64,000 nucleotides of DNA from Escherichia coli (GTDB taxonomy: Bacteria > Pseudomonadota > Gammaproteobacteria > Enterobacterales > Enterobacteriaceae). The DNA lies in the NCBI RefSeq assembly GCF_016026235.1, contig NZ_CP065613.1; one strand, 5' to 3'. Numbering within the stretch: the first letter of the stretch is position 1; each line of letters starts with the position of its first letter. Shown in pieces: positions 20,003 through 21,080 of the stretch. Made by a program: the position numbers and the translations under genes. The notes under the pieces are model-generated. The model saw nothing but the letters and a program-made list of their open reading frames with translations. It ran no database searches and was not told where the DNA came from.

Positions 20003-20047
20003 ATAGCCGCCTGTGTTGTAATGACAACGTTTCGCGGCTATTCTTGA

Positions 20048-20114
20048 ATGGTCTAGATGCAAGAATGGCCCCCGTGATGTTGTCAGGTGCATACCTGCAA
20101 CGTGCGGGGGTTTT
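20048..20114 (+). ncRNA. rdlD: Putative Rdl antisense RNA (antitoxin), copy 1; boundaries approximate
   Basis: Plus-strand hairpin (GCCCCCG ... CGGGGG at about 20068-20110) followed by TTTTCTCTC, about 46 bp upstream of and opposite to the ldr start. Placement is inferred from the known ldr/rdl arrangement; the 5' end was not determined. Confidence 0.4.
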
Positions 20115-20377
20115 CTCTCTCCAGCAACCAATGCCACCAGGGATTAAGCCCCCGCAACATTGCGCCTCACCGGAATCCTTCCGGCTTATCGCTGATTCTA
20201 CGACTGTTTTTCTGTTCCGGAATCCGTCACGTCTTCACTCTGTGCTGCGCATTCCGCAGAATATTATCCGCTTGCAACCGTTGCATTTTTCTTACGAAAA
20301 AGGCCGCAGAGTTTCACCCCTGCGGCCTAGTCCGGGCACAAATTGCCATTACGGCAGCCTGACGCCCGCATGGCACG

Positions 20378-20485
20378 TTACTTCCGCTTATTCAGCCAGT
20401 TCACGATCATACTGGCAAGAATACCAGCAATGACCGGAGCCGCTAAATCATGCCAGAAGGCCATGCCCAGTTCTGCGAGCGTCAT
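20378..20485 (-). CDS. Ldr-family type I toxin (35 aa), copy 2
   Basis: Peptide identical to copy 1, offset by 483 bp. Confidence 0.8.
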   Translation of the reverse strand: MTLAELGMAFWHDLAAPVIAGILASMIVNWLNKRK

Positions 20486-20530
20486 ATAGCCGCCTGAGTT
20501 GTAATGACAACGTTTCGCGGCTATTCTTGT

Positions 20531-20597
20531 ATTGTTTGGATGCAAGAATGGCCCCCGTGGTGTTGTCAGGTGCATACCTGCAACGTGCGGGGGTTTT
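20531..20597 (+). ncRNA. Putative Rdl antisense RNA, copy 2; boundaries approximate
   Basis: Same conserved hairpin and T-run as copy 1; the 5' portion differs from copies 1 and 3. Confidence 0.4.
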
Positions 20598-20860
20598 CTC
20601 TCTCCAGCAACCAATGCCACCAGGGATTAAGCCCCCGCAACATTGCGCCTCACCGGAATCCTTCCGGCTTGACGCTGATTCTACGACTGTTTTTCTGTTC
20701 CGGAATCCGTCACGTCTTCACTCTGTGCTGCGCATTCCGCAGAATATTATCCGCTTGCAATCGTTGCATTTTTCTTACGAAAAAGGCCGCAGAGTTTCAC
20801 CCCTGCGGCCTGGTCCGGGCGCAAATTGCCATTACGGCAGCCTGACGCCCGCATGACACG

Positions 20861-20968
20861 TTACTTCCGCTTGTTCAGCCAGTTCACGATCATACTGGCA
20901 AGAATGCCAGCAATGACCGGAGCCGCTAAATCATGCCAGAAGGCCATGCCCAGTTCTGCGAGCGTCAT
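20861..20968 (-). CDS. Ldr-family type I toxin (35 aa), copy 3
   Basis: Peptide identical to copies 1 and 2, offset by 966 bp from copy 1. Confidence 0.8.
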   Translation of the reverse strand: MTLAELGMAFWHDLAAPVIAGILASMIVNWLNKRK

Positions 20969-21013
20969 ATAGCCGCCTGTGTTGTAATGACAACGTTTCG
21001 CGGCTATTCTTGA

Positions 21014-21080
21014 GTGGTCTAGGTTCAAGATTAGCCCCCGTGGTGTTGTCAGGTGCATACCTGCAACGTGCGGGGGTTTT
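21014..21080 (+). ncRNA. Putative Rdl antisense RNA, copy 3; boundaries approximate
   Basis: Same conserved hairpin and T-run (CGTGCGGGGG at 21067-21076); variant 5' portion. Confidence 0.4.

Follow-up and report, generated by a model that had tools for sequence, protein, structure and literature searches.

A variable segment at the 5' end of the Rdl antisense RNAs, a probable recognition module, in a three-copy LDR-D array of Escherichia coli

Three tandem copies of the ldr/rdl type I toxin-antitoxin module lie in a 64,000-nucleotide (nt) stretch of Escherichia coli DNA (contig NZ_CP065613.1 of assembly GCF_016026235.1; referred to below as the window), and the differences between them are densest in a segment of 21 nt that comprises the first 17 nt of the antisense RNA Rdl and the 4 nt upstream of its start. 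This segment is very probably a recognition module, and its complement, which would be displayed in the loop of a predicted hairpin in the leader of the ldr mRNA, is the most plausible nucleation site for the pairing of the two RNAs. With regard to the reading as a whole, namely that the variable segment serves the Rdl/ldr antisense pair as its recognition ('seed') module and is drawn from a conserved set of alleles, we lean slightly toward it.

The LDR units are arranged head to tail with a period of 483 base pairs (bp) at positions 19811-21200 and show pairwise identities of 96-98%, as found by repeat search and three-way alignment. Both methods delimit unit 1 (ldr-1/rdl-1) at 19811-20293 and unit 2 at 20294-20776, and the alignment places unit 3 at 20777-21200, its homology to the other two units fading from ~21181 (alignment column 404) as it passes into the unique sequence ahead of yhjV. 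In the list of open reading frames (ORFs), bcsG ends at 19808 on one side of the array and yhjV starts at ~21444 on the other; on the basis of the flanking ORFs and the annotation of homologous loci, this bcsG/yhjU-yhjV interval is the LDR-D site of K-12, where a single copy is present. Judged by its sequence, the region represents the known ldr/rdl module in three copies at the K-12 LDR-D locus, with all the sequence-level defining features of this already known system. At LDR-D, the Ldr/Rdl type I toxin-antitoxin system is said to go back to Kawano et al. in 2002.

Within the 382-nt unit common to the three copies (19811-20192), 20 columns are variable and nine of them fall within 21 nt (20047-20067); an equally dense cluster was obtained in 5 of 200,000 random placements (permutation, p ~2.5e-5). 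A sequence-only reading of the same DNA had claimed that the differences cluster in one segment, which these numbers confirm, and the three 22-mers it gave are exact (AATGGTCTAGATGCAAGAATGG at 20047-20068, TATTGTTTGGATGCAAGAATGG at 20530-20551 and AGTGGTCTAGGTTCAAGATTAG at 21013-21034). The other 11 variable columns are scattered single substitutions, as it had also stated, apart from the adjacent pair 20188/20189. According to the alignment and the haplotype table, the segment is of type AATGGTCTAGATGCAAGAATG in copy 1 (20047-20067, Rdl positions -4 to +17), TATTGTTTGGATGCAAGAATG in copy 2 (20530-20550) and AGTGGTCTAGGTTCAAGATTA in copy 3 (21013-21033). Within Rdl, nt 3, 5, 7, 9, 15 and 17 account for six of the nine variable positions, and the other three (20047, 20048 and 20050, that is, -4, -3 and -1) lie just upstream of the annotated Rdl 5' end. 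This corrects the sequence-only reading, which had placed the segment where Rdl would pair with the ldr leader. Two of the three tail types of the window are absent from K-12, and the Rdl of copy 3 differs from K-12 RdlD at 2 nt, both in the tail, with no other difference in the 68-nt stretch compared.

The antisense RNAs themselves were recognized as full-length matches to the Rfam family rdlD (RF01813, gathering score 50): Rdl-1 (66 nt) at 20051-20116 with 82.9 bits, Rdl-2 at 20534-20599 with 81.7 bits and Rdl-3 at 21017-21082 with 89.2 bits, all on the plus strand. These matches bear out the expectation that the variable segment overlaps an antisense RNA. RNA ends, as well as the definition of the leader ORF ldrX considered below, were taken from RefSeq annotation, Rfam and reviews, and the Rdl 5' end agrees with the K-12 RefSeq annotation of rdlD and rdlA. 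Each Rdl consists of a 16-nt 5' tail followed by a long stem-loop and a U-tail terminator. The terminator hairpin had been taken to be identical in all copies, which is not the case: at position 20077 (Rdl nt 27, in an internal bulge), copy 1 has A and the other two copies have G. On the opposite strand, the small hydrophobic toxin ORFs ldr-1 (19895-20002; 35 amino acids, MTLAELGMAFWHDLAAPVIAGILASMIVNWLNKRK), ldr-2 (20378-20485) and ldr-3 (20861-20968) were identified from the ORF list together with annotation in other E. coli (ldr-1) or the alignment (ldr-2 and ldr-3); in other E. coli, the same ORF is annotated as 'type I toxin-antitoxin system toxin Ldr family protein' (WP_001295224.1). Their reported identity holds for the proteins and not for the DNA, which differs at three synonymous sites (19907, 19940 and 19988). 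Rdl lies opposite the ldr 5' untranslated region (UTR) and overlaps neither the Shine-Dalgarno sequence (SD) nor the start codon, 48 nt separating it from the ldr AUG (20002-20000). A putative rdl-1 promoter on the plus strand (20016-20044), read by eye from the annotated Rdl 5' end, would consist of a -35 element TTGTAA (20016-20021), a 17-nt spacer and a -10 element TATTCT (20039-20044), with the start at G20051; it scores 8/12, below the threshold of the promoter scan. That scan returned no site at threshold, and all promoters given here are putative ones read by eye.

The location of the variable segment coincides with parts of both RNAs that are predicted to be accessible. On the antisense side, Rdl nt 1-16 are unpaired in the Rfam consensus structure, and opening nt 1-9 costs 0.1-0.5 kcal/mol according to ViennaRNA, the rest of the molecule being a long stem with an apical loop of 4-5 nt. 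On the mRNA side, reading of the sequence and folding point to a hairpin, HP-B, in the ldr-1 leader (20036-20070, minus strand; also at +483 and +966), which would be formed by a 5' arm GGCCAUUCUUG (20070 to 20060), a 13-nt loop (20059 to 20047) and a 3' arm CAAGAAUAGCC (20046 to 20036). The segment corresponds to the HP-B loop and the upper part of the 5' arm, the latter with two variable positions. Rdl nt 1-9 are complementary to the first nine nt of the loop and nt 10-20 to the 5' arm, and the last four loop nt correspond to the sequence upstream of the Rdl start. HP-B was predicted in all 16 arm/loop variants folded (D-type, A/B/C-type and Pseudocitrobacter), with energies of -7.9 to -13.2 kcal/mol and always with one or two internal mismatches in the stem, and it is present in the minimum free energy (MFE) structure of the full-length mRNA of copies 2 and 3. 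The predicted cost of opening the target loop is 0.4-1.7 kcal/mol in the fold of the full-length mRNA and 3-6 kcal/mol in that of the leader only.

Some other structural features of the leader were also noted. The two variable arm positions, 20065 and 20067 (+483, +966), are perfectly linked in the 42 units first tabulated, being either A..G or T..A, and each form leaves a single mismatch at its own place in the HP-B stem, C.A at pair 4 in one case and A.A at pair 6 in the other. None of the units had the intermediate combination, with which all 11 bp of the stem would be perfectly paired. A U-turn motif (YUNR) was considered by eye as a common feature of the target loop and rejected: CUAG or CUGA occurs in some types and the motif is missing in others, for example copy 2. 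In the MFE structures of the full-length ldr mRNA of copies 2 and 3 (19812-20186, minus strand, in the numbering of copy 1), the SD/AUG and the region just upstream (~20030-19990) pair with the 3' UTR (~19890-19850), and a 5' GGCGCAA is paired with a 3' UUGCGCC, which resembles the hok-like inhibition of translation by fold-back.

The distribution of the segment in other genomes points to a limited number of old, conserved alleles within a repeat that is reshuffled and homogenized by recombination; it does not resemble free drift or a mutational hotspot. Searching genome and metagenome collections for exact matches to the conserved Rdl stem yielded only 8 and 13 loci, perhaps due to short-read assemblies in which the repeat is collapsed, and complete E. 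coli genomes were used instead. The full sample comprised 27 loci with 64 D-type units in all; besides the window, it included 20 chromosomal loci of E. coli, loci of two other Escherichia species and a small number of metagenome contigs. In these units the segment occurs as nine discrete haplotypes, and the last 22 units contributed no new type. All 13 minor alleles within the segment were seen at least twice, with no singleton, compared with 61 singleton and 48 non-singleton minor alleles in the flanks (Fisher p = 1.2e-4). Mean nucleotide diversity (pi) reaches 0.209 in the segment, compared with 0.033 outside and 0.023 at 17 four-fold degenerate ldr sites, the segment being ~9 times as diverse as the latter. 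Exact 61-mers carrying the window types 1, 2 and 3 were found in 1,229, 1,653 and 2,292 E. coli records, respectively, and best matches with 1-3 differences (95-99% identity) in 134 records for type 1 and 73 for type 2, so that near-variants are rare among ~5,400 genomes. These tails are shared with E. whittamii and Escherichia sp. E1V33, and the K-12 RdlD tail GTCTAGAGTCAAGATTAG is found on a Pseudocitrobacter backbone only 79% identical to a D-type unit. Within the tail, the invariant positions G1, U2, G6, C10-A14 and U16 are interspersed among the variable ones.

Single-nucleotide polymorphisms (SNPs) in the flanks form a mosaic with respect to tail type: units with different tails within an array differ on average at 9.8 sites, and units with the same tail in different genomes at 11.9. 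Blocks of flank SNPs are common to different tail types inside an array, identical tails occur on flanks up to 10% different, and arrays differ in the order of their types (for example, h7-h8-h6 and h7-h6-h8). Co-variation with tail type was also used to look for a distant intramolecular partner of the loop, a candidate we rejected: strong linkage to tail type was limited to the adjacent site 20077, weak linkage was seen for 20198 and a few sites in the ORF, and most sites showed none. It should be noted that one E. coli-type LDR-D unit, 95-96% identical, was found in an assembly labeled 'Bacillus sp.' (NZ_JABWSY010000055.1, a 503-bp contig with coverage 0.66), most likely as a contamination.

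Predicted pairing energies distinguish the allele types at the tail. Between Rdl nt 1-9 and the loop, seed duplexes have a mean energy of -11.3 kcal/mol for cognate and -4.3 kcal/mol for non-cognate pairs, and for Rdl nt 1-16 the values are -23.3 and -13.0 kcal/mol; different alleles are mismatched at 1-6 seed positions. For the three copies of the window, the seed energies of Rdl1 are -11.6 kcal/mol on ldr1, -2.5 on ldr2 and -7.5 on ldr3; those of Rdl2 on the same targets are -8.7, -10.9 and -4.6, and those of Rdl3 are -9.0, -1.4 and -11.9. Because of G.U wobbles the seed discrimination is directional, and the protection from cross-talk predicted by these values is partial and directional. 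As a measure of specificity, the energy of the full-length duplex was rejected, since ~47 common nt dominate its value.

On the basis of these observations, the following course of events would be conceivable. The 5' tail of Rdl (nt 1-9) would nucleate on the HP-B target loop, and pairing would then extend into the HP-B arm and the long shared stem, giving a duplex that would block translation of the leader and make a substrate for RNase III. Mismatched seeds would slow the binding of non-cognate RNAs, only partially and directionally. Since Rdl is cis-encoded, each allele is perfectly matched to its own mRNA, and unequal crossing-over and gene conversion would shuffle the nine D-type alleles (three of them in the window) among arrays while the rest of the unit stays near uniform. 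For K-12, overproduction of LdrD is reported to be toxic, the toxicity being relieved by RdlD (reviewed in PMC4147584), and a duplex of Rdl and ldrD is formed in vivo, as indicated by p19-captured RNase III products from the overlap (PMC7373196).

What would be blocked in the leader might be the ORF ldrX, the translation of which has been proposed by Gerdes and Wagner to be coupled to that of ldr and blocked by Rdl (reviewed in PMC4147584 and PMC8167048). A candidate ldrX with the putative start codon UUG lies in the HP-B 5' arm (20062-20060, minus strand), with GGGGG 6 nt upstream. Its frame (20062-20000, minus strand) is open in 37 of 37 distinct leaders. In A/B/C-type units it is closed by a UGA that overlaps the ldr AUG (AUAUGA), and in D-type units it continues in frame into ldr; a loop variant with one additional nt shifts the frame, which is still open and continues into ldr. 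A second leader frame is open too and the candidate peptide sequence is not conserved; the open UUG frame is weak evidence for ldrX. If the candidate were real, its start region would be directly masked by the Rdl tail. An ATG at 20094 (minus strand), within the stretch complementary to the Rdl apical loop, was considered as a conserved ldrX start and dismissed, since several D-type units have lost it and A/B/C-type units do not have it.

A bolder version of the recognition-module reading, which we put forward tentatively and consider doubtful, is that the Rdl 5' seeds are balanced, 'incompatibility-like' specificity classes (at least nine of D-type and more of A/B/C-type) that are older than the splits between Escherichia species and are kept distinct by selection while recombination homogenizes and reshuffles the rest of the repeat, each ldr copy being mainly under the control of its own antitoxin and independently 'addictive'. 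The idea of limited cross-talk applies a known principle, reasonably enough, to a family that is itself known. The population picture may be new, that is, a closed series of alleles with no rare variants, shared across species and ~9 times as diverse as synonymous sites.

Several results weigh against a role of the segment in recognition, or against selection for it. With respect to structure, no compensatory changes supporting the HP-B stem were seen among the variants, so the hairpin is a prediction, and its 3' arm is the complement of the putative rdl -10 element (TATTCT), which could alone account for the invariance of this arm. With respect to diversity, the arrays sampled are phylogenetically non-independent, the four loop nt outside Rdl are as diverse as those inside it (pi 0.255 vs 0.268), and diversity is elevated in further small hairpin loops of the unit as well (pi 0.09-0.30). 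With respect to specificity, Rdl2 faces ldr1 with no true mismatch and three G.U wobbles (-74.9 vs -76.2 kcal/mol for the cognate pair), and full-length non-cognate duplexes in general are predicted at -54 to -75 kcal/mol vs -76 to -83 kcal/mol for cognate ones. Since such non-cognate duplexes are very stable, specificity cannot come from equilibrium energies and could come only from the rate of nucleation. This rate governs specificity in other antisense systems, such as CopA/CopT and Sok/hok. Identical types are also found together in one array (three in locus L028, two in L034 and two in L035), some co-resident types are one seed nt apart (h7 and h8), and the tails and loops of K-12 rdlB and rdlC are identical. 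Same-type pairs account for 5 of 38 within-array pairs (13%), compared with 13.9% expected from pooled type frequencies; no signal of exclusion of identical tail types within arrays could be observed, in a test that is weak because tandem duplication makes identical neighbours and the arrays are related. Our literature search found no paper testing cross-repression by Rdl. Selection for orthogonality is not demonstrated by our data, and several of these observations argue against strong selection. The suggestion of the sequence-only reading that cognate pairs have diversified and cross-talk is thereby limited is partly supported, being favoured by the discrimination of seed energies and the conservation of the types, and disfavoured by the stability of the full non-cognate duplexes and the co-occurrence of identical types.

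Relaxed constraint, an explanation that we consider unlikely, comes first among the alternatives. The segment would then be the largest stretch of the unit without a sequence requirement, a 13-nt loop facing an unpaired tail, in which old neutral variation among paralogues has persisted; complementarity would be kept automatically, both RNAs being transcribed from the same DNA, and any reduction of cross-talk would be an unselected by-product. It is in line with this explanation that the loops elsewhere in the unit are diverse too (pi 0.30 in the 5' hairpin loop and 0.15 in the terminator loop), that the loop nt upstream of Rdl +1 vary as much as the seed, that identical types are not excluded within arrays and that two K-12 tails are the same. 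However, drift should give rare variants, whereas the segment has no singletons against 61 in its flanks, only nine haplotypes occur in 64 units, and near-variants of types 1 and 2 are rare among ~5,400 genomes. Identical tails have moreover been kept on flanks differing by up to 10% and in other species, invariant positions stand among variable ones, and diversity is ~9 times that of four-fold sites.

It is improbable, in our opinion, that the alleles instead tune expression, setting the level of Rdl or Ldr and not the specificity of pairing. The segment covers the discriminator and start of rdl (-4 to +1) and its initial transcribed sequence and, on the other strand, the ribosome site and first codons of the candidate ldrX. 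Of the nine variable positions in the window, three fall between the rdl -10 and +1, the UUG frame passing through the segment is open in all distinct leaders, and the linked arm positions 20065 and 20067 move the mismatch in the hairpin. On the other hand, most variable positions (Rdl nt 3, 4, 5, 7, 8 and 9) are outside core promoter elements, the ldrX peptide is not conserved while a second frame is open as well, and the data show no link of the alleles to expression. Such tuning would also be compatible with the recognition-module explanation. A mutational hotspot, in which an imperfect inverted repeat (GGCTATTCTTG ... CAAGAATGGCC) extrudes as a hairpin and its exposed loop gathers damage or template-switch mutations, appears very improbable: although the variable positions coincide with the loop of this repeat and other hairpin loops of the unit are polymorphic too, it predicts many rare, recurrent variants, of which there are none in 64 units and few in ~5,400 genomes, and template switching would make the arms perfect, whereas the perfect arm GGCTATTCTTG/CAAGAATAGCC was never observed.

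With regard to the remaining features of the array, a terminator scan identified an intrinsic terminator of ldr-1 at 19818-19845 on the minus strand (also at 20301-20328 and 20784-20811). A putative ldr-1 promoter on the same strand (20186-20200), read by eye, would have its -10 element TAGAAT at 20200 to 20195 and its start region at ~20186-20189, which would give a leader of ~185 nt. A second small cluster of differences is found at this predicted ldr start, positions 20188-20189 (+483, +966) being AT, GA and GC in copies 1, 2 and 3, and 20189 is polymorphic in the population as well. Upstream of the putative ldr -10, unit 3 (21181-21260) diverges from units 1 and 2 (20215-20293 and 20698-20776); its putative -10 is TAAAAT, compared with TAGAAT in the other two, and its -35 region differs. 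Therefore, ldr-3 may be transcribed differently from ldr-1 and ldr-2.

A 1.9-kb query comprising the array and parts of bcsG and yhjV had matches in 5,425 of 5,426 complete genomes, the copy number at the site ranged from 1 to at least 4 across the fetched E. coli genomes, and strain FDAARGOS_943 has the same array with 99.8% identity. LDR copies on plasmids were found in 26 of 25,557 places, for example on a 195-kb plasmid of H30 (NZ_CP195449.1), and one plasmid copy has an Ldr-family gene with ~81% identity. In three of 20 fetched E. coli loci (L027, L036 and L037), the bcsG beside the array is an annotated pseudogene with an internal stop. Directly left of the fetched array of strain RM13322 (NZ_CP050498.1, locus L043) there is a truncated integrase-core gene of insertion sequence (IS) type, in the place occupied by bcsG or an extra ldr copy in other fetched loci.

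These results bear on why bacteria keep several near-identical type I copies and on whether these act independently. Cognate-only repression has been shown for Sib/Ibs and Zor/Orz, and no equivalent for Ldr/Rdl was found in the literature searched. A defined 9-nt seed with nine natural alleles makes concrete predictions that can be tested: Rdl2 should cross-repress ldr1, Rdl1 should not repress ldr2, and Rdl3 should be largely private. If functional classes kept across species do exist, LDR arrays would be natural sets of orthogonal antisense regulators and would offer ready-made parts for synthetic RNA control; if instead each ldr is repressed by all of the Rdl RNAs, the copies would be redundant and the variation merely tolerated.

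Among known type I systems, the array belongs to Ldr/Rdl. It resembles K-12 Ldr/Rdl (RF01813) in the 35-amino-acid Ldr ORF, the ~66-nt cis-antisense Rdl opposite the 5' UTR, a unit of ~480-530 bp and the bcsG-yhjV site, and it differs from K-12 LDR-D in having three tandem copies instead of one. In Sib/Ibs, repression is cognate-specific with one exception and depends on recognition regions of a few nt (Han et al., 2010; PMC2943612). Both systems have several homologous cis-antisense pairs per genome with the differences concentrated in short recognition regions; however, Sib overlaps the whole ibs ORF and has two internal recognition domains, whereas the variable part of Rdl is a 5' tail facing a leader hairpin and its specificity is predicted. 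A few nucleotides of the V1 region decide which toxin mRNA is repressed in ZorO-OrzO and ZorP-OrzP, with the involvement of RNase III (Wen et al., 2014; PMC3919570). This is likewise a duplicated type I locus in which the antitoxin RNA uses its 5' end to pair with the 5' UTR of the toxin mRNA, but Orz is divergently encoded and pairs over 18 nt, whereas Rdl is complementary over 66 nt and non-cognate pairs keep ~47 nt of perfect pairing. With hok/sok of plasmid R1, the array would have in common a long structured toxin mRNA, a single-stranded antisense 5' tail attacking the leader region, repression proposed to act through a leader ORF (mok; ldrX for ldr) and, in the predicted MFE structure of the ldr mRNA, 5'-3' fold-back pairing. 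Nevertheless, the toxin families are unrelated, ldrX is hypothetical, and its candidate frame is in frame with ldr (D-type) or ends in a UGA overlapping the ldr AUG (A/B/C-type).

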